Origin: Escherichia phage TR1
Sequence record: OP087522.1
Length of the DNA: 44,099 nt
Strand: one strand, 5' to 3'
Both the position numbers and the translations under genes were made by a program. Each line of letters opens with the position of its first letter. Position 1 is the stretch's first letter. The notes beneath the pieces were generated by a model, which was not told the origin of the DNA, did no database searches, and saw only the letters and a program-made list of their open reading frames with translations. This document shows positions 1,092-43,577 of this stretch, piece by piece.

Positions 1092-1134
1092 ATTATATGG
1101 CATCAATGCCTGTCACGTTTAGCTATTCGTGCTG
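1092..1134 (-). promoter_or_regulatory. promoter cassette copy: palindrome TAGCT-N5-TGCTG (1120-1134), 22-bp spacer, -10 TATAAT (1092-1097)
   Basis: Matches the repeated architecture seen at 12 other sites; conserved leader CAACCAATCAAACAACGAGAGGG follows. Confidence 0.55.
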
Positions 1135-1277
1135 TCTACATCTGGCCCTCTATCAAAAGTTGCTAATACTTCGTCTGTGTCGCCATCGCACTCAAACGTG
1201 TCACTGTATTTCTCATTGAAGTAGATTAAATCCTCAACAAATTCATCACATTTCGGGAATAAACATGTGTTAAGCAT
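1119..1277 (-). CDS. hypothetical small acidic Cys-containing protein (about 52 aa, below ORF-track cutoff)
   Basis: Manual translation (MLNTCLFPKCDEFVEDLIYFNEKYSDTFECDGDTDEVLATFDRGPDVDSTNS); stop codon lies inside the promoter palindrome; start overlaps upstream gene end. Confidence 0.3.
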   Translation of the reverse strand: MLNTCLFPKCDEFVEDLIYFNEKYSDTFECDGDTDEVLATFDRGPDVDSTNS

Positions 1278-1428
1278 TTTTCTTATCCTCGCCCTTATTT
1301 AGACCACACTTTTCCTCACGCTCTTTCCAGATATTCATTAACTCAAAGTACATCATGGCAATCTCGCCAGTCTCAGCATCATGCATCATTCTCTTAGCCC
1401 ACTGGCTTGGTTTTTCGTAGTTATCCAT
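1270..1428 (-). CDS. hypothetical small protein (about 52 aa)
   Basis: Manual translation (MDNYEKPSQWAKRMMHDAETGEIAMMYFELMNIWKEREEKCGLNKGEDKKNA); AAGG about 11 nt upstream of ATG. Confidence 0.3.
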   Translation of the reverse strand: MDNYEKPSQWAKRMMHDAETGEIAMMYFELMNIWKEREEKCGLNKGEDKKNA

Positions 1429-1446
1429 CTAATCGCATGCCTTAAA

Positions 1447-1581
1447 TTATAGTTCGTTAGAATGCGTTTTAGCATCGTCTACGGCTGCCGAAATAATGTA
1501 AATAATCGCGAAGCCCAGAGACCACAACAACCATGGTAAAGCCTCAACTAAAACCTCGTCAATCATAAGTTCCGTGTGCAT
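1447..1581 (-). CDS. hypothetical small membrane protein (about 44 aa, one predicted TM helix)
   Basis: Manual translation (MHTELMIDEVLVEALPWLLWSLGFAIIYIISAAVDDAKTHSNEL); hydrophobic core; GGAAA RBS-like sequence upstream. Confidence 0.3.
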   Translation of the reverse strand: MHTELMIDEVLVEALPWLLWSLGFAIIYIISAAVDDAKTHSNEL

Positions 1582-1591
1582 CTTGTTTTCC

Positions 1592-1771
1592 TTAAATCTT
1601 GTTCAATTGCTCAAGAATTTCGTAAGCCAGTTCTCTAGCTTGCTCTTCTGTTAAGTGGATGGTGTGAACTTGAGGTTCGTCACGCATTCCGCAAGCCTGA
1701 GCAATGATGAATGTTGCGTAGCCGTCGGAGTGGTTAGCCTGAAGTTTTGGTTCTGATTGTCGGAATCTCAT
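1592..1771 (-). CDS. hypothetical small protein (about 59 aa)
   Basis: Manual translation; ATGA start/stop overlap with gene 1768..1977. Confidence 0.3.
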   Translation of the reverse strand: MRFRQSEPKLQANHSDGYATFIIAQACGMRDEPQVHTIHLTEEQARELAYEILEQLNKI

Positions 1772-1977: not shown

Positions 1978-2008
1978 CTCTATACTCCATCGTGTTGTCG
2001 ATGTGGTA

Positions 2009-2051
2009 ATTATGCCTGATTTCTCCGGCGATTGTTTAGCAATTCGTGCTA
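2009..2051 (-). promoter_or_regulatory. promoter cassette copy: palindrome TAGCA-ATTCG-TGCTA (2037-2051), 22-bp spacer, -10 CATAAT (2009-2014)
   Basis: Exact spacing measured in sequence; palindrome overlaps stop codon of gene 2049..2579. Confidence 0.55.
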
Positions 2052-2579
2052 TTGTCCATTCATGAGTAACTTAGCTTTCCTATAAAACTCCATCGCCACC
2101 TCAACCTCTTCCTCACTGTACCGCAAGTGGTATGGTAGTCTACTAGTGTGCTCACCTTCGTATACTTTGAGGTTAGGTTCCCATCTCTCCTCTAGGATTG
2201 CGGGATGAACGTAAACCCTATCGCCAATTAGACATGTAAGATTCATCTTGTCGAGTTCTGGAATAAGCTCATCTTTAATGCGTGCAAATAGGCCAATTTC
2301 TCGCCCAACAAATGGCTTCAACTTGCGCACGCCTTCGTATATGGATTTAACCACGAACACACCTTTCCCGTGCCTTCCCATTCTCCTAATGACTTTAATG
2401 AGCACAGCAAGCTCACTACCTTCGTAGATTGACGACGCATCAGGCTTACCCCAAAATACCTGGGCTTGTCGATACCCGTTCTCATTGATTGCTACTCGTA
2501 GCGGAGGTAAACCATCTTTTTCTGCGATTTCAATTACCCGCTCATCTGTCAGTTTATCTTCGGTGAAATCAAACATCAT
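2049..2579 (-). CDS. hypothetical protein, internally deleted paralog of the 527-aa protein at 5233..6816
   Basis: N-terminus (FDFxEDKL...LPPLRVAINxNGYRQ) and C-terminal block (GKxGKGV...RKxKPF...RIKDxLxPxLDxxNxTCLIGD) align to the ends of the 527-aa ORF; central region absent. Confidence 0.6.
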   Translation of the reverse strand: MMFDFTEDKLTDERVIEIAEKDGLPPLRVAINENGYRQAQVFWGKPDASSIYEGSELAVLIKVIRRMGRHGKGVFVVKSIYEGVRKLKPFVGREIGLFARIKDELIPELDKMNLTCLIGDRVYVHPAILEERWEPNLKVYEGEHTSRLPYHLRYSEEEVEVAMEFYRKAKLLMNGQ

Positions 2580-3316: not shown

Positions 3317-3357
3317 GCCTTTTTGTTCTGACAAGTGTCATCCTATTCTGACAAGTG
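3317..3357. promoter_or_regulatory. tandem operator-like palindromes (TTCTGACAAGTGTCA; second copy a perfect 18-bp palindrome TTCTGACAAGTGTCAGAA), 23 bp centre-to-centre
   Basis: Direct reading: two copies at 3317-3331 and 3340-3357. Confidence 0.5.
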
Positions 3358-3397
3358 TCAGAATATAACAGAGGAATATATCAACTATTTCATCTAT

Positions 3398-3470
3398 GAG
3401 CGGTATACACAGTATACATATAATAATAATAATAATAATAATAAAGAAGAAGTATATATATATTATATAC
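3398..3470. repeat. repeat element with (AAT/TAA)8 microsatellite and flanking TATACACAGTA / ATATATAT blocks; second copy at 22843-22905
   Basis: Microsatellite 3421-3444; aligned by eye to 22843-22905, which has 5 units. Confidence 0.6.
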
Positions 3471-3639
3471 TTATAGTGTATATCCAGTGTATATGTCGCG
3501 TAAAAACCGTAGGTTAGTGGTCACTTACTTTTATGACCACACTGAGTATACATTAGTTACACGTATACAGGAAATGGTCCAGCCAGAATCAAAATCAACT
3601 TGTATGGTAGTCCATCCACCATTCATTCACCATCACATC

Positions 3640-3742: not shown

Positions 3743-3766
3743 ATAAACCCAACGAATAGCACTTTT

Positions 3767-3810
3767 TGCTAATGACATTCATTGGCGGCGGGACCATAAT
3801 GAATCCATCA
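3767..3810 (+). promoter_or_regulatory. promoter cassette copy (plus orientation): palindrome TAGCA-CTTTT-TGCTA (3767-3781), 23-bp spacer, -10 CATAAT (3805-3810)
   Basis: Same architecture as minus-strand copies; leader CCATCAACAACGAGGAGAG then ATG at 3828. Confidence 0.5.
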
Positions 3811-3827
3811 ACAACGAGGAGAGAGAT

Positions 3828-4216: not shown

Positions 4217-4217
4217 C

Positions 4218-4421: not shown

Positions 4422-4582
4422 TGCTATTACCATCTGAGATTAACTATTTTGATCTGGAAGTTATTAGTTCTTACAGCGGCAAGGGCTGGCCTTGCGGGGA
4501 ATGGTTCAACGAGGACTTGCTTGAATCTCACGAGATTATGCTTAAGGCGATTGAGAAGGCGAGAAATAGCACGAATTGCTAA
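4421..4582 (+). CDS. hypothetical small protein (about 53 aa)
   Basis: Manual translation (MLLPSEINYFDLEVISSYSGKGWPCGEWFNEDLLESHEIMLKAIEKARNSTNC); stop TAA lies in promoter palindrome. Confidence 0.3.
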   Translation: MLLPSEINYFDLEVISSYSGKGWPCGEWFNEDLLESHEIMLKAIEKARNSTNC

Positions 4583-4609
4583 AGCCCTTCGGGGCTTTTG
4601 TTGTATAGT
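4567..4609 (+). promoter_or_regulatory. promoter cassette copy with embedded hairpin: palindrome TAGCA-CGAAT-TGCTA (4567-4581), spacer containing GCCCTTCGGGGC hairpin, -10 TATAGT (4604-4609), leader CATCGAAACGAAA
   Basis: 22-bp spacing measured; hairpin plus T-run in the spacer may double as a terminator for the upstream gene. Confidence 0.5.
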
Positions 4610-4641
4610 TTCCTCATCGAAACGAAAGAGAACAAGTAATC

Positions 4642-4806: not shown

Positions 4807-5159
4807 TGACTACTACCATAACTAAAAATTTCATTAGCAAAGACAACCAACTGTTTAAAGCTCGCGTTAAAGATGGTGTCGAGCAAATCAAGAAAGATGG
4901 CAAATGGGTTAATCTGGAAGAACGTGGTAAATACATTAAGACCAGAACGCTTTACGTGACACATGTTAACCACAAATCTGGCGTTAAGAAGGATTTCAAA
5001 GAAGGAAAGAGATACCAGGTGCTAATGCATAGCGGGATGGGTCAGTCTGCTGGTTACATTTACGACGAAGATGGTAATGCATGGCAGCTATATCGAAGCG
5101 AAGATGTTGGTTTCTACACTCTTTGCCAGACTTACCTATTTGAATCATCTTACAAATAG
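4806..5159 (+). CDS. hypothetical protein (117 aa)
   Basis: ORF track; ATGA overlap with upstream gene. Confidence 0.5.
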   Translation: MTTTITKNFISKDNQLFKARVKDGVEQIKKDGKWVNLEERGKYIKTRTLYVTHVNHKSGVKKDFKEGKRYQVLMHSGMGQSAGYIYDEDGNAWQLYRSEDVGFYTLCQTYLFESSYK

Positions 5160-5232
5160 CAGCACGAATTGATAATGCATTATAAGCGGCTGTTGATATA
5201 ATGGCCGCTCAGAAACAATACGGAGAGAAGTA

Positions 5233-6816
5233 ATGTTTGATTTCAACGAAGATAAACTATCTGTTGAACAAGTTATGGCGATTGCCGCGACCGACAACCT
5301 CCCACCGCTTCGCGTGGCCATTAATGCAAATGGCTATCGGCAGTCTCAATCATTCTGGAAAACACCTGTGGAGATTGACGCAGGTAATGACAAGTACCCT
5401 GTAATATCTCTAGGCAATGACATTGATGTTGTTGGTAAGCTCTCGGCAAATATTGCTCGCTCAGTTCAGTTCCCAGAGTCATCAGCATACATGCACTTTT
5501 TGGGTTGTGTGTCCGCTGCGATGCTAGGGCGCTTTACTGTTGAGTATCACGGAACCCAGCAGCCAACATCGCTTTACGTGGTAACTAGCCAGCCGCCATC
5601 TACTGGTAAGTCAGCCATTAACTCTCTGTCAATTGCGCCAATGATTGCTGAGACTGAGCGTTTGAACGAGGTGCGTAAACGTGACCGCAAAAAGATTATG
5701 GCTAAGCTGTCTGCGCTAGCAAAAGAAATGAAACAGGAGAAGTCACCATCTGAGATGGCTTCACTGTTTGAGGAGAAGGAAGATTTAGAGGAAAAGCTCG
5801 AGAAGCTGTGCGATATCGTATTCCCGGTCTCAGATACTACGCCAGAAGGTCTTGCACGAATCAACAACCGCCAGGGTAACTTTGCGGTCATCTCGGATGA
5901 GGCAACAAGCGTCAACTCATTATTGGGCATGACATACGGTGATGGTTCCAAGAAAACGAACAGCGAGCTTGTACTTAAAGCGTGGGATGCTGGTAACGTA
6001 TCTATTGCCCGCGCTAACGCAGAAAACAACATGAGTTTCGTGGCAATGGGGTGCATCTCTGTAATTGCTCAGGATGAAACAATCAATGCGATTATGAATG
6101 CTGGTGCGCGTGGTATTGGTGTTTCCGAGCGTTTCCTTCTGGTGCGTGAAAAGTCATTTCTTGGAGACCGCGTGTTTGTTGATGAGAATGGCGATTCAAC
6201 ATACGAGGCTATTGATGGTGGTCTTAAGGCAGGCTATTTCCGTCTCGTTCATGAAATTATGAATGAAGTTGAAGTGAAACTGACAGTAAGTGCGTCATCC
6301 ATGCGCTACCTTAACCGAGCTCGCCAGGAAATGGAACCGCATCTTGGTGATGGCGGTAAATATTCCCACACGATGTTACGTGGTGCTCTTGGTAAATTTG
6401 ATAAGCAAGCAATCCGTATTGCCTCAGTATTGCACGTTATTCGCAACTGGTTCGCACCGGCAGGGTCGAGTCCGCAGAAATCAAGAGAGATTGAGCTTGA
6501 AACAATGCAAGAAGCGGTTATGATTTTCCACGAGTTAAGCAAGACTTATTTGTCGTCCGCTAGTGCTGCTGGTCATGCTGGTGATAATGCTGAAATGAAT
6601 AAGCTGGTTGATATCCTGATTAAGCAAGGTAAGAATGGGAAGGGTGTTGTTGGCGTTCGCTCACTGTATGAAGCAGCACGCAAAGTTAAACCTTTTGAAG
6701 GACAGGCTGGCGTAATGACTCGCATCAAGGACCACTTGGTTCCTATGCTTGATGAGAAAAACTATACATGCCTGATTGGTGATAAGATTTACATTAATCC
6801 GCGATTGTTGGGGTGA
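5233..6816 (+). CDS. large early protein with P-loop-like motif (VTSQPPSTGKS); function unknown, possibly replication-associated NTPase
   Basis: ORF track 527 aa; GGAGAGAAG RBS; motif read from translation; family assignment not verifiable without a search. Confidence 0.6.
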   Translation: MFDFNEDKLSVEQVMAIAATDNLPPLRVAINANGYRQSQSFWKTPVEIDAGNDKYPVISLGNDIDVVGKLSANIARSVQFPESSAYMHFLGCVSAAMLGRFTVEYHGTQQPTSLYVVTSQPPSTGKSAINSLSIAPMIAETERLNEVRKRDRKKIMAKLSALAKEMKQEKSPSEMASLFEEKEDLEEKLEKLCDIVFPVSDTTPEGLARINNRQGNFAVISDEATSVNSLLGMTYGDGSKKTNSELVLKAWDAGNVSIARANAENNMSFVAMGCISVIAQDETINAIMNAGARGIGVSERFLLVREKSFLGDRVFVDENGDSTYEAIDGGLKAGYFRLVHEIMNEVEVKLTVSASSMRYLNRARQEMEPHLGDGGKYSHTMLRGALGKFDKQAIRIASVLHVIRNWFAPAGSSPQKSREIELETMQEAVMIFHELSKTYLSSASAAGHAGDNAEMNKLVDILIKQGKNGKGVVGVRSLYEAARKVKPFEGQAGVMTRIKDHLVPMLDEKNYTCLIGDKIYINPRLLG

Positions 6817-8378: not shown

Positions 8379-8552
8379 TTAATCTGCGATAATAAATTCC
8401 ACCAAAGAGCCATCAATCGGCGCAAGGATGTGAGTCATATCGTCGCCATAAATCTTGTAGTAACCGCTACCAAGATGCTCGCCGCTGTATGGCTGATTCT
8501 CAGTAAACGGAAGCGTCTTTGAGTTGTTTTTCACGCAGTATAGTTTAGTCAT
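8379..8552 (-). CDS. hypothetical small protein (about 57 aa) heading the lysis operon
   Basis: Manual translation (MTKLYCVKNNSKTLPFTENQ...); AGAGGA RBS; promoter cassette upstream. Confidence 0.35.
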   Translation of the reverse strand: MTKLYCVKNNSKTLPFTENQPYSGEHLGSGYYKIYGDDMTHILAPIDGSLVEFIIAD

Positions 8553-8583
8553 TTTTGAATCCTCTGTTGTTTTCGATTTGGTG

Positions 8584-8626
8584 ATTATACCTAATTGCTG
8601 TGGCGATTGTTTAGCGATTCGTGCTA
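8584..8626 (-). promoter_or_regulatory. promoter cassette copy: palindrome TAGCG-ATTCG-TGCTA (8612-8626), 22-bp spacer, -10 TATAAT (8584-8589)
   Basis: Measured spacing; palindrome overlaps stop of dNMP kinase gene. Confidence 0.55.
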
Positions 8627-9165
8627 TTTATTGCATCAATCACTTTTTCTGTAGTTATTTTAATATCACCTTCAATAACATCAATATCAATTTCCCTTGC
8701 GCAGAGGCCGCTAATGTATGACCTACTATCTCCTTCGAAAGTGTAACCAGGTCTATGAAGCCTAACCAATGTAACCTCAACACCACTTTCAATTAGTGGC
8801 TCAATTTCACTTGCAAATCCACCATCTGAACAGATGTGGCAACCATTGCCAAGAGACTGAGCTAGCCTTTTACCGAAAACTTCATCACCAAAAACTGGCT
8901 TCATCACTGATTCGCTAATCCAAATCATAAATTGACGAACAGTCATTCCACCAAGAAATTCATGTGGTGATTCTTTGTACTCTCGATCATCGTAATTCTT
9001 AATAAATCCATCAAACTCATCGCTTGATAGCATGCTCTTAGCCACATTAAACATAGGCGATTTGAAAGAAACCTTATCCTTGCAAATTCCAAGTTTAACA
9101 ATGATATCTGCAACTGTATCTTTTCCAGCACCTGGGGGTCCATTAAGGATGATTAACTTTTTCAT
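8611..9165 (-). CDS. deoxynucleoside monophosphate kinase (T4 gp1-like P-loop kinase)
   Basis: LIILNGPPGAGKDTVADII P-loop and VTLVRLHRPG block resemble T4 dNMP kinase as recalled from memory. Confidence 0.6.
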   Translation of the reverse strand: MKKLIILNGPPGAGKDTVADIIVKLGICKDKVSFKSPMFNVAKSMLSSDEFDGFIKNYDDREYKESPHEFLGGMTVRQFMIWISESVMKPVFGDEVFGKRLAQSLGNGCHICSDGGFASEIEPLIESGVEVTLVRLHRPGYTFEGDSRSYISGLCAREIDIDVIEGDIKITTEKVIDAINSTNR

Positions 9166-9763: not shown

Positions 9764-9793
9764 TTTTGTTTACCATCTCGTTTGTGTTTGATT

Positions 9794-9836
9794 AATATAC
9801 CCAGATTTCTCTGGGATTTATTAACAAAAAGTGCTA
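9794..9836 (-). promoter_or_regulatory. promoter cassette copy: palindrome TAACA-AAAAG-TGCTA (9822-9836), 22-bp spacer with hairpin, -10 TATATT (9794-9799)
   Basis: Measured in sequence. Confidence 0.5.
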
Positions 9837-9840
9837 TTTA

Positions 9841-11055: not shown

Positions 11056-11307
11056 TCATACAACCTCCTTCAGCCAGTAATCAATTAAATTCGCACTAAT
11101 TGCTAATTTCTCGTCCAGGTCAGTCATGCAGAGATTGCCGCACGCTGGCGAGTAATAAATCTGAACCCACTTTCCATCCTTCGTCTTCGCATTAACATCC
11201 GCATAGTCAGGAGGAAACCAATCAGCAATAGGTATCGCCCTAAACTTAGCACCACTACTCCCACGCACCAAATCATAATGCTCAGGCTGAAAATCTAATC
11301 CAAACAT
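11056..11307 (-). CDS. hypothetical protein (83 aa)
   Basis: ORF track. Confidence 0.45.
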   Translation of the reverse strand: MFGLDFQPEHYDLVRGSSGAKFRAIPIADWFPPDYADVNAKTKDGKWVQIYYSPACGNLCMTDLDEKLAISANLIDYWLKEVV

Positions 11308-12095: not shown

Positions 12096-12133
12096 TTTCT
12101 TTCTCTCTTCGTGTGTTTCGTTTCGATGAAGTG

Positions 12134-12176
12134 ATAATACACCACTTCATCAATTCGTCTTTAGCAATTCGTGCTA
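12134..12176 (-). promoter_or_regulatory. promoter cassette copy: palindrome TAGCA-ATTCG-TGCTA (12162-12176), 22-bp spacer, -10 TATTAT (12134-12139) inside an inverted repeat
   Basis: Measured; palindrome overlaps stop of VRR-NUC gene. Confidence 0.55.
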
Positions 12177-12593
12177 TTTTCTAATCATCTCTGCGAATGC
12201 AGCAAGAAAACCATCTCTGCCGTAGGCAACTCCTGCGAAACCGCCTGATTCCCTTACGCTTTTTAGGAATGACTTTTGCTCATCACTTACTGGGCTAGCC
12301 TGTGTTTTCCCAGCCCTCTTTAGCTCTATTGCGCCAAATGGATAACTTCCTCGTAATGACTCAGGTATTAGAAATAGGCAGTCTGATACGCCTTTAAGAA
12401 GTCCTTTAGCCTGGTCTTTCCTTGCCTGACCAATGCTCTTCATTGATTCATTAACTGTGTGCCAGTAAACAACCTGCGGATAGTTATACTTAACCCAATC
12501 AGAGCAAAAGATTTGTTCGTCGTCTTCCTTCGGGCATGACTTCACCGGGCCGCCATAGAACTCGAGGTAGTCAGTTTTGTCTGTAACTTTCAT
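12174..12593 (-). CDS. VRR-NUC family nuclease
   Basis: Pattern ...DCLFLIPE...GAIELKRAGKTQ... consistent with PD-(D/E)xK VRR-NUC domain; adjacent to helicase. Confidence 0.5.
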   Translation of the reverse strand: MKVTDKTDYLEFYGGPVKSCPKEDDEQIFCSDWVKYNYPQVVYWHTVNESMKSIGQARKDQAKGLLKGVSDCLFLIPESLRGSYPFGAIELKRAGKTQASPVSDEQKSFLKSVRESGGFAGVAYGRDGFLAAFAEMIRK

Positions 12594-14584: not shown

Positions 14585-14625
14585 TTTAAATATCCTGATA
14601 GTTCTTTAGTTCGTTGCATTGATGT

Positions 14626-14667
14626 ATAATAACAGCCATCGAACCCATTGTTTAACAAAAAGTGCTA
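14626..14667 (-). promoter_or_regulatory. promoter cassette copy: palindrome TAACA-AAAAG-TGCTA (14653-14667), 21-bp spacer, extended -10 TGTTATTAT
   Basis: Measured. Confidence 0.5.
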
Positions 14668-14680
14668 TTGAGGTAATGAG

Positions 14681-15154
14681 ATGTGTGAAATCGACAAGCG
14701 AACTATTAACGGCAATAACGGAACCGTGCGCACAAAAGACAAAAAGCAACGCAAACGACCATCAGGCTACTACGTATTGAAAGATGAGGTAAAGGCTGGG
14801 CTACGTGCTCGCCTGGAGATGGTTCTTGATTTCTACGGTACAAAGGCGAACATCGCAAAGCAGTTAAATGTGTCCAACCAAGCTGTATCGGAATGGTTTA
14901 ACCGCGGTATGATTTCGGCTCGAGGGGCTCAGCGAGCACATAATGCGTACAAGCGAAATAAGGAGGGATTTCGAGCTACATTCTGCCGACCAGACCTGCA
15001 ATTCGACGGAAACGGAAAACCGCTAACACTTCGATGCAAGAAGCGCCATATGCTTCGCGTAGTTACCGATGCAGAACTAGCAACAAAGCCACCCTGTCGA
15101 CCATGGCGCAAGAATAAGATTGCTAACGAGGCAGCACGAAAAGCTAAAGATTAA
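14681..15154 (+). CDS. HTH DNA-binding protein (Cro/YdaS-like helix-turn-helix), putative transcriptional regulator
   Basis: HTH signature ANIAKQLNVSNQAVSEWFNRGMIS; basic N-terminal region. Confidence 0.55.
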   Translation: MCEIDKRTINGNNGTVRTKDKKQRKRPSGYYVLKDEVKAGLRARLEMVLDFYGTKANIAKQLNVSNQAVSEWFNRGMISARGAQRAHNAYKRNKEGFRATFCRPDLQFDGNGKPLTLRCKKRHMLRVVTDAELATKPPCRPWRKNKIANEAARKAKD

Positions 15155-15160
15155 ATAATT

Positions 15161-15193
15161 GGATGTGCCATAATCGGTACATCCTTTTTTTAT
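15161..15193 (+). terminator. rho-independent terminator
   Basis: Hairpin GGATGT...ACATCC followed by T7 run. Confidence 0.5.
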
Positions 15194-15206: not shown

Positions 15207-15686
15207 ATGAACTGGCATGATTATTTTTACTATGTAGATGGCAAATTGCATTGGAAGATTAGCACTGCAAGACGTGTTAAGGTTGGCGATGAGTGCAACT
15301 CACTATCTACATCTGGCTATTACAAAGTGTCTGTTAATGGCTTTAGGACTTATGTACATAGAGTTGTGTGGGAGATGTTTAATGGAGAGCTTCAAAATGG
15401 CGACTACATTGATCATATAAACCATAACAAATTAGATAACAGAATAGAAAACCTAAGAGTAACAACAAATCAAGGTAACTCAAGAAATTGCAAGCTTAGC
15501 GTTTTATCAACAAATGGTTATTGTGGAGTGGCAAAGCTAAATCACGGAAAATTTAAGGCTCACATCAAGGTTGACGGCAAGCATCTACACCTTGGGAACT
15601 TCGATACTCCAGAGCAGGCGTATAAAGTAAGAATTGAAGCAGAGAGAAAATACAACTTTCACGAAAATCACGGGTTAAGCAAATGA
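15207..15686 (+). CDS. HNH-AP2 homing endonuclease (paralog family copy 1)
   Basis: MNWxDxFxY N-terminus, HRVVWE...DHINHNKLDNRIENLR HNH core, AP2-like GV...G.F.T.E.A C-terminal domain. Confidence 0.75.
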   Translation: MNWHDYFYYVDGKLHWKISTARRVKVGDECNSLSTSGYYKVSVNGFRTYVHRVVWEMFNGELQNGDYIDHINHNKLDNRIENLRVTTNQGNSRNCKLSVLSTNGYCGVAKLNHGKFKAHIKVDGKHLHLGNFDTPEQAYKVRIEAERKYNFHENHGLSK

Positions 15687-16628: not shown

Positions 16629-16693
16629 TGCCTTAAAGATGCTACAATCCAAATTAGCAATTAGTGCTATTTTACAAATGGAGACTTTACACA

Positions 16694-20837: not shown

Positions 20838-20866
20838 CTTTAACCTCGTTCGTTTTTGATGGGATA

Positions 20867-20909
20867 ACTATACCTGAGCTATCCATTGTTGTTTTAGCAA
20901 TTTGTGCTA
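20867..20909 (-). promoter_or_regulatory. promoter cassette copy: palindrome TAGCA-ATTTG-TGCTA (20895-20909), 22-bp spacer, -10 TATAGT (20867-20872)
   Basis: Measured. Confidence 0.55.
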
Positions 20910-21385
20910 TTTCCGTGATTTCTATGAAATCCCAACTTAACCTCTTCGCTTTTTCTTGCTCTAGCGGCTTCCTCGATTGAGTCAAAACACCCAATGTGAT
21001 ACTCGTAACCATCCACACCCATTCTTGCTACATATTTTGATAGCCTTGGCACCCAACTAACACCCAGAACTCCGGTTTTGTTTGTTTTTCTCAATGACTG
21101 ATTCATGGCATTTCCTTGCCTATTCACCAATCGCAAGTTCTCAATCCTGTTATCATTTCTAATGTGATTTATGTGATCAACAAATAAACCACTAGGTATT
21201 TTACCATTTACGATATCCCATATAATTCTGTGAACCTTGTGCTCCCTGCCATCGTACCTCAACCTTACATAACCGTTAGTCTTACTTACATTTCCAGCAA
21301 CTTTACCAATGCAACCTCTAGTTCCGCTCATTATCTTCCATATCAAATTAACCCCATCGTAATCAAAAATTTCAGACCAGTTCAT
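20894..21385 (-). CDS. HNH-AP2 homing endonuclease (paralog family copy 2)
   Basis: MNWSEIFDY..., HRIIWD...DHINHIRNDNRIENLR, AP2-like GVSW...GCFDSIEEAARAR. Confidence 0.75.
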   Translation of the reverse strand: MNWSEIFDYDGVNLIWKIMSGTRGCIGKVAGNVSKTNGYVRLRYDGREHKVHRIIWDIVNGKIPSGLFVDHINHIRNDNRIENLRLVNRQGNAMNQSLRKTNKTGVLGVSWVPRLSKYVARMGVDGYEYHIGCFDSIEEAARARKSEEVKLGFHRNHGNSTNC

Positions 21386-22842: not shown

Positions 22843-22905
22843 ATGATATACACAGTAATATATAATAATAATAATAAGAGTAAAAGCTTGATATATATAG
22901 ATATT
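22843..22905. repeat. second copy of (AAT)n-containing repeat element (5 units) with GTATAC/GTAAC motifs nearby
   Basis: TATACACAGTA-ATATATAATAATAATAATAA aligned by eye to 3398-3446. Confidence 0.6.
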
Positions 22906-23002
22906 TTAATGTAACTAATGCGTAACTAGGCGTAACAGCGCGTATACCATTTTCCGCGGACGAGATTGTATACACCGAGTTACATCGGTTACGCGTATAC
23001 AA

Positions 23003-23046
23003 TAGCACGAATAGCTAAAGACTCCGTAATCATCCTTTGCTATAGT
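23003..23046 (+). promoter_or_regulatory. promoter cassette copy (plus): palindrome TAGCA-CGAAT-AGCTA (23003-23017), 23-bp spacer, -10 TATAGT (23041-23046), leader CATCGAAACGAAA
   Basis: Measured. Confidence 0.55.
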
Positions 23047-23086
23047 TACTCCATCGAAACGAAACACACTCACTAAGGAATACAAA

Positions 23087-30247: not shown

Positions 30248-30718
30248 TTATTTACCCCCGTGATTTTTGTGATAATTAAGGGCTATCTCTGCGCTTTTTC
30301 TCGCTTTTACAGCCTCTTCAAAATTGCTTGTTGTTAATAGAATTCTCTTACCTATCTTTGATATAAATTTTTTCTTTGTTTTGCAGTAACTAACCCCGAC
30401 AACGCCAGTTTTATTTGATGAGTACATGCTTTTGTTTTTCATGTTATCACTCTTCGTTACCAGTCTTATGTTTGATATGTTGTTGTTTTTTCTAGAGTGG
30501 TCAATGTGATCAATTTCCATGTCATCAGCTATTCTTCCATTAAACATTTCCCATACAACCCTATGGGCCATTACCTTTACACGCTTGTATTGAACGATTA
30601 TGTAACCTCTCTTTTCACAAAAGAAACCAGCAACATCGCCAATATTGTATTGTATTGCTGGCTTTATCTTCCAATAAAGAACGCCATTTCTATAATCAAA
30701 AATATCATTCCAGTTCAT
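30248..30718 (-). CDS. HNH-AP2 homing endonuclease (paralog family copy 3) inserted between tape measure and M-like gene
   Basis: MNWNDIFDY..., HRVVWEMFNG...DHIDHSRKNNNISNIR, AP2-like C-terminus; own promoter cassette. Confidence 0.75.
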   Translation of the reverse strand: MNWNDIFDYRNGVLYWKIKPAIQYNIGDVAGFFCEKRGYIIVQYKRVKVMAHRVVWEMFNGRIADDMEIDHIDHSRKNNNISNIRLVTKSDNMKNKSMYSSNKTGVVGVSYCKTKKKFISKIGKRILLTTSNFEEAVKARKSAEIALNYHKNHGGK

Positions 30719-30746
30719 TTTATCTCCTTATGATTTTAATGAGTTG

Positions 30747-30789
30747 ATTATAGCAAGCCAAATCCTTTTGGCTTTACCATTTTGTGCTA
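30747..30789 (-). promoter_or_regulatory. promoter cassette copy: palindrome TACCA-TTTTG-TGCTA (30775-30789), 22-bp spacer with hairpin, -10 TATAAT (30747-30752)
   Basis: Measured; overlaps tape-measure stop codon. Confidence 0.5.
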
Positions 30790-33558
30790 TTAGTTGAAAC
30801 CTCTCAAATAAGCAAAGGCTCTGCCGCCCTGCTGGAAAGACTGAGCAATCTCTTCTGCTACAATTGCCTTAACGCCATTTTGCAGCGCCTTGGCCTGTTC
30901 CGGGTCGCTTCCAATCCCACTATTAACGTTAACGGTTATTCCGCTAACATTAACATCTGCACCACCAGAAACCAAGCCGCCATTTGCATAGCCCGAAGGC
31001 CCGCCTACAACACCGCCATTTGCGTAACCTCTCATCAATGCGTAAAGGTTTTTAACACCAATCCTGCTTGTTGCTTCTTTTGTGAATACAAACTCCCCCT
31101 TATGTACAGTGCCTGCTGGTTGATATTTTCCACCGTCTCCAGTGTAACCGCCGCTAGCAAAGCCACCGCCAATCGCAGATGCGATAGACCCAATCGCGCC
31201 ACCAGTACCACCAAAGCTACTTAAGCTAGACTCGATAGCCTTAACAATAAGAAGCTGAGTTGCAATTCTTGCAATCTGCTTGAGTATGTTTACAGTAAAC
31301 TCCCTGAAGTTTGTTTCTCCAGTGGTTACAAGGTCAGTAATCTGGTCAGTAATGCCTTCAAATACCTTAGTGGTTAAACTTCCGGCAATTGAGAAAGCAT
31401 CTGTAGCGCTTTCAGCCCAGTTAGCAAAGGATTGATTCACGCCAGCAAGCCAGTTTTCACGTAGCGCATCCTCTTGAGCATAGAAATTACGCCTTGCTTC
31501 GAGTAAAGCCTGAAAATCAGTGTCATCTACAGAGCCACCTTTGTTTAACTGATTGGACTGAAGCGACTGAATCTCTCTGGCTCTCTGCTTCTCACGAGAT
31601 GATAATCCGGCGCCAAAACCAATGTTATTTGCTTCGTTGTTGATCTGAAGAATCTTCTTCCTGTTATCCTCAGCTAACTTATTAGCTCTTTCCTGCAAAA
31701 CAATCTGATCGCCAAGTTCAGCTTTCTGCCTTGCTAGTTCCAGAACTTTATCTTTCTCGAGAATAAGTCTTGCTTGCTCCCTTCCTATTGTACCAGCTGC
31801 TTGCCGCTCCTCAAGTATTGCAAATTTAGCCTCTTCCTCAAGAAGCTTTCTCCGCTCAGTACTAATCGCCTTTGTCTGACCGCCAACATCCTGAAGCAAT
31901 CTTAACTGAGCCTCAAGAGCAAGCACCCCTGATTCATAATTGATGGTAAGGTCTCTGGCTTCCTTTGGTGCTTTCGTTTTTGCTGGCTTATTCCTTTCTG
32001 CCTCGGCCTTCTTGGCTTCATCAAGCTCTCGCTGGCGAAGCTGAATAACCCTATTTGCCTGAGCTATAGCTTCAGCATTACCGCTCCTAGCGATTACCGC
32101 AGCTTGCTTCCTGGCGTCTGCAAGTGACTTCTCCGCTCCAGCCACTCGATCAAGAGCTAAGTACTCCTTGCCGATTAGATCAACTTGCTCAGCAACGTAT
32201 CTGTTTCCATCAATTAGAGCCTGATTGACGTCCTTTTCTAGAATGCTTGCAAATTCCTGAATTGCTGCGCTGTTTCTTGCCGCCACGTTTGTTAGCGGAG
32301 AGTTCACAAGGCCCTGTACCGCAACATCGTTGTAGTAGCTTACTGCCTTCGCGTTCTCGAACCAGCTATCCTGAATCTTCGCAGCCTCTAGCCTGTGCTG
32401 CTCTATTTGTGCGTTAACCTGCGTGAAGTTTGAAGCATCTTTATATCGCTCAACCAACTCTCTGGCTTCATCATAACTCACGCCAACATCAATCAGCTTC
32501 AGAATTGCCTCTTGCGCCCCGTCACGTGTTGATACGAATGACTTCGCGATATCTTCAGCTGTCTTACCTGATGCTTCCGAAATCTTAGCGATGCTAACAC
32601 TTAGCTGTCGAGCTGCCTCATCCGTAACCCCTAGCGTTTCCTCAACTGCTTTTCTTGCTGCCTTTATTGCCGATTCGCTCTGGTAAATACTTACCGCAGC
32701 ATAAGCAAAGCCAGCACCGAGGACGCCTGCGGCTACTGTGAGCGGGTTAAGATATGAGAGAAGGAATCTTGCAGTATTGGCGATGCCGCCAAAGCTATCT
32801 TTAATCTGCCCACCTTGCTGGATTGCAATTAGCCATATTGGAATGCCGCCAGCAAGAGATGTGCCGATATCTGTAATCTGTGCAGGAAGCTGAGAGATGG
32901 CATTCTTATATTGGCCGGCACTTAATCCTGATTTTTGGAATGCTGCTGCTTGCCTGCCAAGATTCTCTACCGTCCTTTGAGTTGCCGTTCCAATCTGATT
33001 AATTAATGGCGCTGCCTGCGCTGTTACACCTAGTTGAGATGCCTGAAGCTTAAGGTATTCTTCCCTCGTAAGGCTTGCCGCCTGAGCCTGGCGCTCAAGT
33101 GATGCGATAAATCTATCTGCCGCTGCTTTTGCTGCTGCTTTCTCTTTCGCTGCTTGAGCCGCTGCCCTACCCTCTTCAGTGAGAGCCGCGCGAGAACGAG
33201 CGAGCTTTGCATTCTGCGTTTCAAGCGCCTCCCCAAGGCGGAAAAACTCCTCATCAGGAACTACGCCAGCAGCAAACGCCTTATCAAGACCTACCGCTGC
33301 CTCTTGCAGCTTGCGGAACTTTGCGGCCGTTGGGTCAATAGCTGTTTGCAACTTAGCTAGTGACGCTTGTTGTTCCGCCAGTGCTCTAGCAGTGTCTCTC
33401 GCCTGGGTTCTTGCAACCTGCTCAGCATTAACGAACTCACTAATCCCAGAGGCTGCTTGTTGGTTTGCCTGCCTGAACTTTTGTAGGGATTGTGTACCCC
33501 TGTCTACTTGCGAGACGTCGACCGCTAGCGTGATGCCAGCAATTTCATTAGTTGCCAT
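30790..33558 (-). CDS. tail tape measure protein; ORF track start 33609, likelier start 33558
   Basis: About 920 aa, Ala/Gln/Glu-rich coiled-coil with Gly-rich C-terminus; follows G/G-T chaperone genes; GGAGA RBS at ATG 33558. Confidence 0.75.
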   Translation of the reverse strand: MATNEIAGITLAVDVSQVDRGTQSLQKFRQANQQAASGISEFVNAEQVARTQARDTARALAEQQASLAKLQTAIDPTAAKFRKLQEAAVGLDKAFAAGVVPDEEFFRLGEALETQNAKLARSRAALTEEGRAAAQAAKEKAAAKAAADRFIASLERQAQAASLTREEYLKLQASQLGVTAQAAPLINQIGTATQRTVENLGRQAAAFQKSGLSAGQYKNAISQLPAQITDIGTSLAGGIPIWLIAIQQGGQIKDSFGGIANTARFLLSYLNPLTVAAGVLGAGFAYAAVSIYQSESAIKAARKAVEETLGVTDEAARQLSVSIAKISEASGKTAEDIAKSFVSTRDGAQEAILKLIDVGVSYDEARELVERYKDASNFTQVNAQIEQHRLEAAKIQDSWFENAKAVSYYNDVAVQGLVNSPLTNVAARNSAAIQEFASILEKDVNQALIDGNRYVAEQVDLIGKEYLALDRVAGAEKSLADARKQAAVIARSGNAEAIAQANRVIQLRQRELDEAKKAEAERNKPAKTKAPKEARDLTINYESGVLALEAQLRLLQDVGGQTKAISTERRKLLEEEAKFAILEERQAAGTIGREQARLILEKDKVLELARQKAELGDQIVLQERANKLAEDNRKKILQINNEANNIGFGAGLSSREKQRAREIQSLQSNQLNKGGSVDDTDFQALLEARRNFYAQEDALRENWLAGVNQSFANWAESATDAFSIAGSLTTKVFEGITDQITDLVTTGETNFREFTVNILKQIARIATQLLIVKAIESSLSSFGGTGGAIGSIASAIGGGFASGGYTGDGGKYQPAGTVHKGEFVFTKEATSRIGVKNLYALMRGYANGGVVGGPSGYANGGLVSGGADVNVSGITVNVNSGIGSDPEQAKALQNGVKAIVAEEIAQSFQQGGRAFAYLRGFN

Positions 33559-34224: not shown

Positions 34225-34269
34225 CTCGTTATCTCCTTTGTTTATGATTTGGTGATTGTATCACATAAA

Positions 34270-34650
34270 TTATTTGGTGTGGAAGTGCGCGGCTTTATTT
34301 GCAAATTCATCAGTTGCTGAGCCGATTGACCAAAGTTTAGTCATTACTTCATTAATTTCTTTTTGGCTAACATCAGCCTCGCGATTGAATTCTTTGTTAA
34401 CAACCTTAACACTCAGGGTGTAAATCATAACCTTACGTTCGCATTCAATTTCTGACGTTTTCATGATTGCATCTCTCATCTCATGAGCATCAATTGCACT
34501 AACTTTTGATAACTCACCATGAACGAGACTGAAGCTCATGTTCTTACACATGTTTACAGCTTTTGCCATGTCCATTTCTTTCTGTTTAGTTTCACCAATG
34601 TTACAACCAGTTAAAGTAAGTGCGATTACTGCGGCGATGATAGCTTTCAT
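34270..34650 (-). CDS. lipoprotein (126 aa) inside the tail gene cluster
   Basis: Signal peptide with lipobox LTLTGC; own promoter cassette (34687-34729) and terminator upstream. Confidence 0.55.
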   Translation of the reverse strand: MKAIIAAVIALTLTGCNIGETKQKEMDMAKAVNMCKNMSFSLVHGELSKVSAIDAHEMRDAIMKTSEIECERKVMIYTLSVKVVNKEFNREADVSQKEINEVMTKLWSIGSATDEFANKAAHFHTK

Positions 34651-34686
34651 TTTGATTTCCTTCGTTCATTTCGTTTCGATGAATGA

Positions 34687-34729
34687 ACTATACAGCAACC
34701 CACGGCTTAGTCTTTAACAAAAAGTGCTA
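34687..34729 (-). promoter_or_regulatory. promoter cassette copy: palindrome TAACA-AAAAG-TGCTA (34715-34729), 22-bp spacer, -10 TATAGT (34687-34692), leader CATCGAAACGAAA
   Basis: Measured. Confidence 0.55.
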
Positions 34730-34733
34730 TTAA

Positions 34734-37314: not shown

Positions 37315-37378
37315 CTTTGTCTCCTTTGTTTATCTGATTGGGTGATTATAACCCAACAATTCCATTTGGTACAGGCGT

Positions 37379-41403: not shown

Positions 41404-41425
41404 TTAAGAGGCTAGTTTATCACGC

Positions 41426-42997
41426 TTATTTAATTCCTGCTAATCGCATCATTCTCGCTTTAGGGTCTTCTGCGATGTTCAGTACCAGGTTGACAGCCAT
41501 CGTCAAACAGTCTATCTGGTCATCGTGCGAGTGAGAATCATCTGCCGTAAATGCTGCAATCTCTGTTAGCAATCCGTTAAGCCAATTTGCTGACTCAGGC
41601 AGGATAACGTTGCCAGCCTTAATCTGAGGAAGTGCACTCATTACGCGAGTCAGCTTGTCGTTATCTGGCACGTATGGCTCGATAGGCGTTCGCATAACCC
41701 TTCCTGCTGATTGAATCAGACCTATACCAGATGCTTTCTTCTCTATGATGATTTTACGAAGGATACCATCTGTCTGATTGGATGCCCTTGCCATCCTCTC
41801 GAAGTCTAATAGCTCTGCCTCTAGCTCTGGCGCCTCCCATTTACCACGTCGCTGGTCTAACAGGTAAATCTTGCCATCCTTATAGCCCCAGAGTTGCAGT
41901 ACACTAAAGTCACTGTAGCTTTTAGTGGTCATCGCGGTATCAAGCGTCATGAACCTGTAATCGTACTTAGCTGGCGGTCGCAGGGTGTCACTAATGCGCT
42001 GGAGCCAGTCTACGTTAATCAGGTTGCCACCTAGAGCTACAGGCTCCTGAGCATATTGACTAAGGAATGTGTAAGGATCAGCATCACGCATGGCTATCAA
42101 GTCTTCTATTGATTCCTTTGCTGGGAAGTAGCTGTAATACTTAACCCCATCGCGCTCTACAAATGGCGAAGAAAGAACGTCATCTATAAACTGCTGCCTA
42201 ATCCATTCAGGAAGCGTGTCGGCGTATTCTTCCGTGACTATTGCTGGAATTTTAACTACGTCGAATTTTATCCCCATCTGCCCTGACTCCATGAAGTGAC
42301 TAGTGTCAAGAACATGAAGCCTTTGCTGAACGGCTAATATTGGAGTCTCTTTTCCCTTAACTGAACTCGCCCTTCGTGAGCGAATTGTGTTCTTGAGAAG
42401 CATATTAACAGCCTCCCTCCTTACATTACTAAGCGCATCATCTGGCTTCAGCGGGTCATCAAGCATTATGCATCCACTGTAATCATCGGTCATGTAACCA
42501 CCACGCGAACCAGTCACCTGTCCAGCCATTGCCTTAGATATCGATTCAAACCTCACCTTTCCATCTTCATCTAGAACCTGAATCTCATCATCCCTGCAAG
42601 TCCCAAATGAGCAAGGCCAAAGTTCCTGAAACTCCTTTGACTTAATCAGGTCGCGCACACGCTTTGAGTTACGCTTAACCAATGAGTCAGAGAACGACAA
42701 ACTAAGATTTCTAACCTTCTTAATCTTGATCATGCTATATACAGGGAAATGTATACTAAAGAGCTCGGTTTTGGCTGATCCAGGAGCTACGTTTATGATG
42801 GTATCCTTTCTCTTACCATCAAGAATCTCATCTATGACACGACAAAGGTATTTAGCATGCCAATTCATTTTGAATCTCTCGCCTTGCGTTATCTGAAAGA
42901 AGCACCGCAAGAACCCTTCGAAACTATGCTCAGAGATTGCCTTTATAGCCATCTTTTCAGCGTGAGTCAGTTCATCCCAGACTATTAATTCACTCAT
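41426..42997 (-). CDS. terminase large subunit
   Basis: ATPase region (INVAPGSAKTE) and C-terminal acidic nuclease-like motif (TADDSHSHDDQIDCLTMA); 523 aa. Confidence 0.75.
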   Translation of the reverse strand: MSELIVWDELTHAEKMAIKAISEHSFEGFLRCFFQITQGERFKMNWHAKYLCRVIDEILDGKRKDTIINVAPGSAKTELFSIHFPVYSMIKIKKVRNLSLSFSDSLVKRNSKRVRDLIKSKEFQELWPCSFGTCRDDEIQVLDEDGKVRFESISKAMAGQVTGSRGGYMTDDYSGCIMLDDPLKPDDALSNVRREAVNMLLKNTIRSRRASSVKGKETPILAVQQRLHVLDTSHFMESGQMGIKFDVVKIPAIVTEEYADTLPEWIRQQFIDDVLSSPFVERDGVKYYSYFPAKESIEDLIAMRDADPYTFLSQYAQEPVALGGNLINVDWLQRISDTLRPPAKYDYRFMTLDTAMTTKSYSDFSVLQLWGYKDGKIYLLDQRRGKWEAPELEAELLDFERMARASNQTDGILRKIIIEKKASGIGLIQSAGRVMRTPIEPYVPDNDKLTRVMSALPQIKAGNVILPESANWLNGLLTEIAAFTADDSHSHDDQIDCLTMAVNLVLNIAEDPKARMMRLAGIK

Positions 42998-42999
42998 TG

Positions 43000-43506
43000 T
43001 TACGCTCTCGTATTTAGGTAGCCTTTATTTTCAGAGCCATGATTTTCATGATATCCGTTCAATTTGTCATACTGCGACCTTGCCAATGCAGCCTCCTCTA
43101 TAGTGTCCTTGTAGCATATGAAGACTGTTTTACCAAACTCTCTAGCCTGAACAAGCCATCTATTCTCTCTTTTGCACCAGCTTACACCGTTTATTCCGCT
43201 TTTATTTCTTGATGATAGTGATCTGTTATTTGAGTTCTCTTTATTGCTTACTAACCTTAAGTTCTCTATTCTATTGTCACTTCTATTTTGGTTTATGTGA
43301 TCTATGTACATGCCTTTAGGGATTGCTCCATTGTGCATCTCCCACACCACCCTGTGACACCTGTATGCTTTTTGTCTATACTTTAGTATCACATAGCCAA
43401 ATTTATCAACTCTTCCGGCCACCTCTCCAACCTTTGATACATTTGCTACTTTTACCTTTCTTATTAAAAGCCCGTCTCTATATTCAAAAATATCATGCCA
43501 ATTCAT
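43000..43506 (-). CDS. HNH-AP2 homing endonuclease (paralog family copy 4) inserted between TerS and TerL
   Basis: MNWHDIFEY..., HRVVWEMHNG...DHINQNRSDNRIENLR, AP2-like C-terminus; own promoter cassette. Confidence 0.75.
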   Translation of the reverse strand: MNWHDIFEYRDGLLIRKVKVANVSKVGEVAGRVDKFGYVILKYRQKAYRCHRVVWEMHNGAIPKGMYIDHINQNRSDNRIENLRLVSNKENSNNRSLSSRNKSGINGVSWCKRENRWLVQAREFGKTVFICYKDTIEEAALARSQYDKLNGYHENHGSENKGYLNTRA

Positions 43507-43534
43507 ATGATCACCTCGCTAGTTTGTTGGGCCC

Positions 43535-43577
43535 ATTATCTCATTGATTGGGCCTCTTCTTTTAACAAAAAGTGCTA
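43535..43577 (-). promoter_or_regulatory. promoter cassette copy: palindrome TAACA-AAAAG-TGCTA (43563-43577), 22-bp spacer with hairpin, -10 GATAAT (43535-43540)
   Basis: Measured. Confidence 0.5.

Follow-up and report, generated by a model that had tools for sequence, protein, structure and literature searches.

Escherichia phage TR1 (sequence record OP087522.1) was analyzed over a stretch of 44,099 nt, here called the window, with respect to a short cassette of a conserved box, a −10 hexamer, and a leader that recurs upstream of many genes. The window belongs to a T1-like E. coli siphophage (Drexlerviridae, Braunvirinae, Christensenvirus), which is 94–96% identical to the phages TR2, TR3, CY1, and Rao1 across most of its length and collinear with TR2. 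The minus strand carries most genes, and plus-strand blocks lie at 3.8–7.2 kb, 14.7–19.2 kb, and 23.1–24.3 kb. The cassette is present in 15 copies, every one of which is oriented with its downstream gene (Table 1). The copies precede small early genes and the DUF3987, helicase, primase, recombination, and kinase genes, one unit heads towards the lysis genes, from which it is split by a terminator, and further copies precede HNH and lipoprotein genes that lie embedded in the structural gene region. The analysis confirmed that the repeated cassette is real and, as judged from the sequence, the main promoter type of this T1-like coliphage. The best explanation for its distribution is that the 15 cassettes would drive nearly all early and DNA-metabolism units as well as the HNH and lipoprotein genes of the late region, as had in part been supposed in an earlier interpretation of the window made without database searches (the sequence-only reading).

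The box comprises 20 bp, ATAGCAC-(GAA/TTT/AAA)-TTG(C/T)TAAAnn, and is followed by a gap of 18 bp (17–19), a G at −14, a TATAAT-like hexamer, 6 nt, and the segment ATCGAAACGAA, the A of which is the predicted +1. Column statistics were compiled for 80 non-redundant cassettes from 5 genomes (the window, TR2, T1, Rogue1, and TSK1), and gap lengths were counted for 90 cassettes. The gap between the box and the −10 measured 18 bp in 71 of the 90 cassettes, 19 bp in 13, and 17 bp in 6. Expressed as the distance from TTGNTA to the −10, the spacing in the window was 22 bp in 12 of the 15 cassettes, 23 bp in 2, and 21 bp in 1. When the conserved A is taken as +1, the box spans about −50 to −31 and its center lies at −40.5. 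The G at −14 was found in 63/80 cassettes and a T at −15 in 33/80. The hexamers were mostly TATAGT, TATTAT, TATATT, CATAAT, or TATAAT, and the 6 nt between them and the predicted +1 are rich in pyrimidines. The seventh base after the hexamer was an A in 70/80 cassettes (14/15 in the window), and this A was preceded by a C in 52/80. The leader that follows is A/C-rich, ATCGAAACGAA; its form CATCGAAACGAAA occurs exactly in 4 window cassettes and is recognizable in most. The hexamer located 17 bp upstream of the −10 matched TTGACA on average at only 1.67 of 6 positions in the window and at 1.76 of 6 in the 80 cassettes. The cassettes are good sigma70 −10 promoters without a −35 element, as far as their sequences tell, with a predicted transcription start. 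Promoter-like sites with canonical −35 and −10 elements were not enriched in the window (47 versus 37 ± 7 in shuffled sequences).

The overrepresentation of the box was pronounced. Exact copies of its palindromic form, TAGCA-N5-TGCTA, occur 6 times in the window against 0.09 expected, and with up to one mismatch 15 copies were found against 2.0 expected, a number reached by no shuffle. A weight matrix built from T1, Rogue1, and TSK1 only recovered the window cassettes. When sites in the five genomes were picked solely by a −10 followed by 5 nt and a CATCGAAA-like leader, 30 of the 35 sites had a box 18–19 bp upstream, and therefore, the coupling of box and −10 is no artefact of the search. The segment that comprises the spacer and the −10 was more structured than shuffled sequences (mean z = −2.5 over the 80 cassettes); 4581–4598, 15161–15184, and 9800–9815 are among the structured segments of the window. 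Fusion with the terminator of the unit before it is seen in many cassettes. Two types of hairpins were distinguished. In the first type, a G+C hairpin stops at the −10, which doubles as the U-tract. In the second type, arms such as GGGGTA..TACCCC enclose the −10 and a U-tract is absent downstream, 15161–15184 being an example.

Much of what the sequence-only reading had described was recovered, namely the spacing of 21–23 bp to the −10, the poor −35, the shared leader, the spacer hairpins, and, in two of the analyses it had proposed, an enrichment against randomized sequences and the presence of the cassette in related phages. It had counted at least 13 sites of one architecture, to which two were added, at 5159–5178 (+) and 15131–15150 (+). 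Twelve of its 13 coordinates were exact, but the site given as 3767–3781 really lies at 3757–3771. The site at 16654–16670, which it had called ambiguous, is a box without a −10 or a leader. The claim that GCTAA usually supplies the stop codon of the upstream gene was overstated: the TAA of GCTAA has this role in 4 cassettes, the TAG of ATAGCAC is the stop of the upstream open reading frame (ORF) in 3 cassettes, and two more stops overlap box position 1.

The cassette was found 15–25 times per genome in T1, Rogue1, TR2, the Klebsiella phage TSK1, Vc1, and Motto, and the box is invariant across genera, in phages of E. coli and Klebsiella and in other Drexlerviridae phages. A search of IMG/VR was performed with a composite pattern of the box, 18 nt, and TATAGT. 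The matches listed were all located on contigs of 41–53 kb, which is the genome size of Drexlerviridae, and the cassette can therefore be regarded as a hallmark of this family.

The box was compared with the marbox, to which the monomeric AraC-family stress activators of the host bind, namely MarA, SoxS, and Rob, and RamA in Klebsiella and Salmonella. For E. coli, the consensus of the marbox has been published as GCAHWWWWTGYYAAA (PMC6900184), with AYnGCACnnWnnRYYAAAYn as a second form. In the window, GCAHWWWWTGYYAAA was matched with at most one mismatch at 12 sites, versus 1.4 in shuffled sequences, and T1, TR2, Rogue1, and TSK1 contain 16–22 consensus sites each, versus about 1 in shuffled sequences. 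Four window boxes fit the consensus at 15/15 positions, and among the 80 cassettes 66 had at most one mismatch and 34 were exact. Box positions 9–11 are occupied only by A or T, position 13 is a G in 78/80 cassettes, and position 14 is a C or T in 74/80. The conservation is asymmetric, as seen at C7, T11, A17, and A18. One helix-turn-helix motif of MarA reads CGTG (= CACG) and the other TTT (= AAA), 7 bases apart, and the respective bases in micF are CACT-7-AAA (PMC8811837). The phage boxes contain CACG-AATTGCT-AAA or CACT-TTTTGTT-AAA, which equals the CAC(G/T)-N7-AAA pattern of MarA and RamA (PMC8811837).

The arrangement relative to the −10 also agrees. In E. coli MG1655, the micF promoter is composed of ACAGCACTGAATGTCAAAAC, 18 bp, TAGAAT, and 7 nt up to the 5′ end of micF, and both the strand sense and the 18-bp gap are identical between the phage cassette and this class II promoter. 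The class I marbox of marRAB in MG1655 lies backwards; read on the opposite strand, it is ATGCCACGTTTTGCTAAATC and has TTTTGCTAAA in common with the T-type phage box. What defines a class II promoter is a marbox in forward orientation that overlaps the −35 region (PMC12052159, PMC6900184). In all 15 window cassettes, the box lies in this orientation, so that AAA is the part nearer to the −10 and the downstream gene and GCAC the part farther away. In Salmonella, forward sites cluster near −41, the −10 and the start of class II promoters are canonical, their −35 hexamers match at a mean of 1.9 positions, and structures with Rob or SoxS at micF show sigma70 displaced from the −35 (PMC10268841). 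At the level of sequence, the phage cassettes exhibit every characteristic of class II marbox promoters: the box, its orientation, a center near −41 with a gap of 18–19 bp, and a −10 without a −35. The sequence-only reading had placed the center near −42, the position of class II activators, and in this respect it was right.

As the sequence of the box, its orientation, and its spacing all fit the marbox, it is probable that the phage starts its genes with a regulator of antibiotic resistance borrowed from the host. The interpretation that we favor, and consider reasonably probable, is that the cassettes are sigma70-dependent class II promoters of the MarA/SoxS/Rob type, with binding and activation by the host factor predicted from these features. 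By our own estimate, which allows for a few hundred E. coli motifs, it is very unlikely that a private phage operator would match about 22 bits of marbox consensus together with orientation and spacing by chance. The identification of the box as a class II marbox appears to be new, whereas the repeat itself has already been published (see below).

In the proposed mechanism, a monomeric host activator of the MarA/SoxS/Rob family would dock on the box, at about −50 to −31, its two helix-turn-helix motifs reading GCAC and AAA, 7 bp apart. The activator would stand in for recognition of a −35, and the sigma70 holoenzyme would be recruited to and held on the −10/G−14 element. The first transcribed base would then be the conserved A, the seventh after the hexamer, and transcription would proceed into the A/C-rich leader. 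The role of the activator would fall to MarA and SoxS under stress and to RamA in Klebsiella. Rob is constitutive and abundant, and it is therefore the likely default activator. An unusual recognition mode of RNA polymerase, which the sequence-only reading had offered as an option, is not needed. Cassette 3 has a fair −35 in addition and could be an activator-independent, immediate-early promoter. Modules that lack a box but combine a good −10 with a leader of this kind (e.g., TATAGTtaacCCATCGAAAGC and TGaTACAATcaccaaATC) were observed at 22579–22584, 34255–34260, and ~37340–37345, all on the minus strand; two of the three fall in the structural gene region. They may represent a second, box-independent promoter class.

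Table 1. Cassettes, a box-only copy, and a regulator gene in the window (bp positions; elements on the minus strand are given in the direction of transcription; −10 and +1 are predicted)
Feature	Coordinates	Strand	Box	−10	Predicted +1	Downstream genes and remarks
Cassette 1	1073..1135	−	1135–1116 ACAGCACGAATAGCTAAACG	TATAAT 1097–1092	A 1085	826–1062, followed by tRNA-Arg and small ORFs that continue over the end of the window in the direction of terS
Cassette 2	1990..2052	−	2052–2033 ATAGCACGAATTGCTAAACA	CATAAT 2014–2009	2002	Box TAG is the stop codon of ORF 2049–2579
Cassette 3	3756..3819	+	3756–3775	CATAAT 3795–3800 (19-bp gap)	3807	Sole cassette that also has a fair −35 (ATGACA, 5/6; 17-bp spacing), overlapping the box end
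Cassette 4	4566..4628	+	4566–4585	TATAGT 4604–4609	4616	Leader ATCGAAACGAAA; terminator-like hairpin 4581–4598 in the spacer
Cassette 5	5159..5221	+	Degenerate, GCAGCACGAATTGATAATGC	TGa-TATAAT 5197–5202		Precedes DUF3987 gene 5233–6816
Cassette 6	8565..8627	−	8627–8608	TATAAT 8589–8584	8577	8379–8552, then terminator 8352–8333, then lysis genes
Cassette 7	9775..9837	−	9837–9818	TATATT 9799–9794		Polynucleotide kinase and ATPase genes; spacer hairpin CCCAGA..TCTGGG
Cassette 8	12115..12177	−	12177–12158	TATTAT 12139–12134	12127	−10 flanked by inverted repeat GAAGTG/CACTTC
Cassette 9 (putative helicase promoter)	14607..14668	−	14668–14649	TATTAT 14631–14626 (17-bp gap)		
Cassette 10	15131..15193	+	GCAGCACGAAAAGCTAAAGA	CATAAT 15169–15174		HNH (15207) and primase genes; −10 in the loop of terminator 15161–15184
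Cassette 11	20848..20910	−	20910–20891, marbox consensus 15/15	TATAGT 20872–20867		Erf recombinase, HNH, and SSB genes
Cassette 12	23002..23065	+	23002–23021	TGc-TATAGT 23041–23046 (19-bp gap)		Lipoprotein gene 23087; leader ATCGAAACGAAA
Cassette 13	30728..30790	−	ATAGCACAAAATGGTAAAGC	TGc-TATAAT 30752–30747		HNH gene 30248–30718, embedded in tail genes
Cassette 14	34668..34730	−	34730–34711, marbox consensus 15/15	TATAGT 34692–34687		Lipoprotein-like gene 34270–34650, late region
Cassette 15	43516..43578	−	GTAGCACTTTTTGTTAAAAG	TGa-GATAAT 43540–43535		HNH gene 43000–43506 and large terminase; box TAG is the terS stop
Box-only copy	16654..16670	−				No −10 or leader; between primase terminator and lateral tail fibre gene
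Helix-turn-helix regulator	14681..15154	+				Cro/XRE-like, single helix-turn-helix; core Drexlerviridae gene, 830 phage records

Several points weigh against a host activator of this kind. Data on binding, activation, or start sites for T1-like phages were not found in the searchable literature, which also contained no relevant papers linking the marbox, MarA, or SoxS with T1-like or Drexlerviridae phages; a full-text search for the string ATAGCAC yielded only primer noise. We know of no precedent for a virulent phage that relies on stress-linked activators. When the Keio collection was screened with the T1-like phage LL5, rob, marA, and soxS were not among the genes recovered (PMC7229145); the mutants were single deletions, whereas the three factors are redundant with one another, and the scoring captured strong defects only. 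In addition, T2 and A3 of the box are near-invariant in the 80 cassettes, which is beyond what the marbox consensus needs, so that a second protein might read the quasi-dyad formed by TAGCA and TGCTA. The same cassettes are present in Vc1 (L007; recorded host Vibrio cholerae) and Motto (L128; Pseudomonas aeruginosa), both with genomes of about 45% G+C. Either the recorded hosts are questionable, or the box is read by a factor that also occurs outside Enterobacterales; if the hosts are real and are devoid of marbox-binding activators, another protein would be demanded. T1-like records labelled Campylobacter, Vibrio, Pseudomonas, or Stenotrophomonas were observed to be close relatives of enterobacterial phages. 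As a separate observation, boxes without a −10 were seen in T1 (L002 8362, 25021) and Rogue1 (L003 21764), where they lie 20–35 nt before the start codons of the genes for the small terminase and for the large tail fibre protein, and the promoter model gives no account of them. In the window, 11090–11106 is a weak box-only match.

A reader encoded by the phage itself was also searched for. The profile of MarA/SoxS/Rob, the MarA query of which had been validated against 1BL0, detected no similar ORF among the six-frame ORFs of the 5 genomes (best E = 0.13). Likewise, an AraC-type helix-turn-helix was not revealed when ten larger ORFs and seven ORFs of the 11–16.6 kb region were scanned against Pfam; the remaining small early ORFs were covered by the profile search only. 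As neither search found a candidate, a phage-encoded marbox reader is not apparent.

The phage could also provide a protein of another type. The box would then be an operator for a dimeric phage protein, for example the Cro-like regulator encoded at 14681–15154, which would bind TAGCA-N5-TGCTA at −42 in the style of lambda cI at PRM. This is close to what the sequence-only reading had suggested, and we regard it as unlikely. The strong enrichment of the dyad speaks for it, as do the conservation of T2 and A3 past the need of the marbox consensus and several properties of the regulator. Its gene belongs to the core of the Drexlerviridae, and in every genome examined it is divergent to the helicase gene and the adjoining cassette. 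Its matches to Pfam were weak (P22_Cro, YdaS), but an AlphaFold model based on 29 homologues (predicted local distance difference test, pLDDT, of 88) contains one helix-turn-helix and is most similar to the Cro proteins of Xfaso1, N15, and P22, not to MarA or Rob; proteins with a Cro-like fold are usually dimers on dyads.

However, the dyad itself is imperfectly kept. The full 5/5 dyad is present in only 34/80 cassettes, the pair 4/14 is complementary in only 48/80, and the pair 7/11 in 0/80. The commonest deviation, C/T at box position 14, corresponds to the 'Y' of the marbox, and the variants TAGCTA, TCGCTA, and ATGGTA (positions 11–12) break the dyad, yet the marbox has 'n' at the positions concerned. 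The marbox consensus permits the dyad among its possible sequences: its left part is YnGCA, and its right part, TGYYA, reads TRRCA on the other strand. A dimer operator would also have to be reconciled with the single orientation of the site relative to the −10 and with the asymmetric conservation, and it requires the chance match to the marbox discussed above. Moreover, if the regulator were required at every promoter, its gene would need an independent promoter; the one in the window has a perfect −10 and a poor −35. The start of the recognition helix (residues ~65–70) varies widely in homologues that are 48–86% identical, whereas the box is the same in their genomes: helix 66–75 is variable, only R75, G76, I78, and S79 being conserved after it, and the window, T1, Rogue1, TSK1, Vc1, and Motto share one box consensus, which does not change with the helix. 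The regulator is probably not the reader of the box. Thus, of the two parts of the sequence-only reading, the geometry of a class II activator site without a −35 was right, and the palindrome read by a dimer, with the phage helix-turn-helix protein as the factor, is probably wrong. As a side aspect, the N-terminal arm of the regulator, DKRTINGNNG..R, is invariant (residues 1–30: D5, R7, N10, G11, N12, N13, R17, D20, R24), and so is a C-terminal segment with two cysteines (96–119); the arm and this segment are more conserved than the recognition helix.

A host activator and a phage protein might also share the site. In such a dual-coded site, host Rob, MarA, or SoxS would activate early, and a phage protein, for example the Cro-like regulator, would then displace it on the quasi-dyad, resulting in early shut-off. 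This possibility, which we rate as quite improbable, would combine the fit to the marbox with the extra conservation at marbox 'n' positions that builds the dyad. It also draws on the arrangement at the regulator gene. A perfect TATAAT at 14625–14630 (+) faces the regulator gene and overlaps the −10 TATTAT (−) of the helicase cassette (14625–14631), the box of which (14649–14668) falls in the 5′ leader DNA of the regulator gene. The TATTATA/TATAATA overlap is kept in T1, Rogue1, TSK1, and TR2, and by its sequence it looks like a mutually exclusive divergent promoter pair. A further point in favor is the box-only copy at 16654–16670, which has equivalents in T1 (L002 34902) and TR2 (L001 16621) and covers the likely start of the tail fibre gene promoter. 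It is reverse to the tail fibre gene and directly downstream of a TGcTACAAT extended −10 (window 16640–16670), and a protein bound there would be predicted to repress, not to activate. However, the variability of the recognition helix counts against this possibility as well, and the dyad is missing from more than half of the sites.

Finally, the box might work without a dedicated protein or at another level, i.e., as a UP-like element for the alpha subunit, as a stoperator or roadblock, or as an RNA hairpin for processing or antitermination in read-through transcripts. The authors of the re-annotation of phage TLS proposed stoperators, enhancer sites, or UP elements, the boxes without a −10 directly precede the start codons of terS and tail fibre genes in T1 and Rogue1, and many cassettes overlap terminator-like hairpins. 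Nevertheless, such roles are highly improbable. The fixed distance of 18 bp between the box and the −10 argues for contact with RNA polymerase at initiation. The box does not contain the A-tracts of the UP consensus (an A/T tract at −59 to −38, bound by the C-terminal domain of the alpha subunit), and its most conserved positions include G4, C5, C7, and G13. The stem of an RNA hairpin, boxB-like or other, would have just 5 bp and be weak, it is broken in the variants TAGCTA, TCGCTA, ATGGTA, and TTGATA, and the loops are variable. Stoperators, in turn, are repressor sites of temperate phages.

Other candidates were rejected on their geometry: TTGCTA as a true −35 would leave a spacer of 22 bp, no −10 being present 17 bp downstream; a sigma54 promoter (TGGCAC-N5-TTGCW) disagrees with AG instead of GG, N3 instead of N5, and the TATAAT-like −10 at a fixed distance; and the MotA box, the TTGC repeats of CII, and the OxyR site ATAG-N7-CTAT are wrong in register or position. 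Only 2 near-matches to the sigma54 consensus are present in the window, both unrelated to the cassettes.

If the box is indeed a host marbox, the consequences would extend beyond this phage. The wider claim, for and against which we see about equal weight, is that early and middle transcription of Drexlerviridae (T1, TLS, Rtp, and the Klebsiella Webervirus) is mostly wired to host activators of the antibiotic, oxidative, and bile stress responses via 15–25 consensus class II marboxes per genome. How T1-like phages direct the host RNA polymerase has been a puzzle since the T1 genome was sequenced, and annotators find almost no canonical promoters. If true, phage development would respond to salicylate, paraquat, bile, and multidrug-resistant mutants with upregulated mar or ramA, and replicating phage DNA would titrate the stress activators. 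By way of the quasi-dyad superimposed on the marbox, the Cro-like regulator might enter into competition with the host activator and act as a temporal switch. The clinically important mar/sox/rob/ramA resistance regulon would be tied to the productivity of T1-like phages, which are common laboratory contaminants and candidates for therapy, Webervirus phages being used in therapy, and synergy or antagonism between phage infection and antibiotic-stress states would be predicted. The cassettes would also offer a set of compact, strong, activator-dependent promoter-terminator modules.

Some further features of the window were observed. Five HNH endonuclease genes are present (43000–43506, 30248–30718, 15207–15686, 19633–20007, and 20894–21385), the first three of which are each preceded by a separate cassette. 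A similar N-terminus (MNW.DIF.YR..) is shared by at least two of the three, as if gene and promoter travel as a unit. A gene for tRNA-Arg (anticodon CCT) is located at 322–397 (−) among small early ORFs, likewise in TR2 and Rogue1. Very A+T-rich stretches with (TAA)n-like runs were found at 22700–23000, with ATATATAATAATAATAATAAG near 22860 as an example, and at 3335–3520. The former is located in the divergent intergenic region upstream of cassette 12 and could be an origin or another regulatory region.

With regard to known systems, the nearest precedent is the re-annotation of phage TLS in 2024 by German, Kropinski et al., who described a 21-nt direct repeat, aaATAGCACnnnTTGnTAAAA, at 21 places (PMC11447400). 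The repeat lies along the direction of transcription, about 76 nt before start codons, is divided into A, T, and G subtypes by its central triplet, and was stated to be present also in T1, Rtp, and Rogue1 (PMC11447400). Only three sigma70-like promoters were found in TLS, and a stoperator, an enhancer-binding site, or a UP element was suggested, the function being left open (PMC11447400). The repeat and the box are the same element, as they agree in consensus, subtypes, orientation, and distance to start codons. In contrast to the interpretation presented here, the TLS study did not link the repeat to a −10 at a fixed spacing or to the marbox; the genome papers on KanT1 and SU57 do not mention the element.

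The replacement of a −35 by a bound protein is known from other phages. At the middle promoters of T4, the MotA box together with AsiA (sigma appropriation) replaces the −35 upstream of a sigma70 −10, and TGCTTtA resembles TTGCTAA. However, the MotA box is centered at −30, 11–13 bp from the −10, whereas TTGNTA of the cassette is 22 bp away, and homologues of MotA or AsiA were not seen in the Pfam scans of ten larger ORFs and the seven ORFs of 11–16.6 kb. In lambda, weak −35 elements are rescued by a protein at about −42 or across the −35, namely by cI at PRM and by CII at PRE, PI, and PaQ. These are phage-encoded oligomers on dyad or direct-repeat sites, unlike the host monomer proposed here, and the CII site TTGC-N6-TTGC straddles the −35 in a 10-bp register, whereas TAGC and TTGC of the cassette are 9 bp apart and further upstream.

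The cassettes closely resemble the enterobacterial class II promoters micF, lpxC P2, lpxL P1, and rfaY P1, which likewise have a forward, asymmetric 20-bp marbox over the −35 with its center at about −41, a distance of 18 bp between the marbox and a canonical −10, a canonical start site, and no recognizable −35. Binding of the host factor is a prediction for the phage set, which differs from these promoters in residing in a virulent phage at 15–25 copies per 45–50 kb. In addition, the phage boxes are far nearer to the consensus than most host sites, and, unlike host class II promoters, they are coupled to the conserved leader ATCGAAACGAA and often fused to terminator hairpins.

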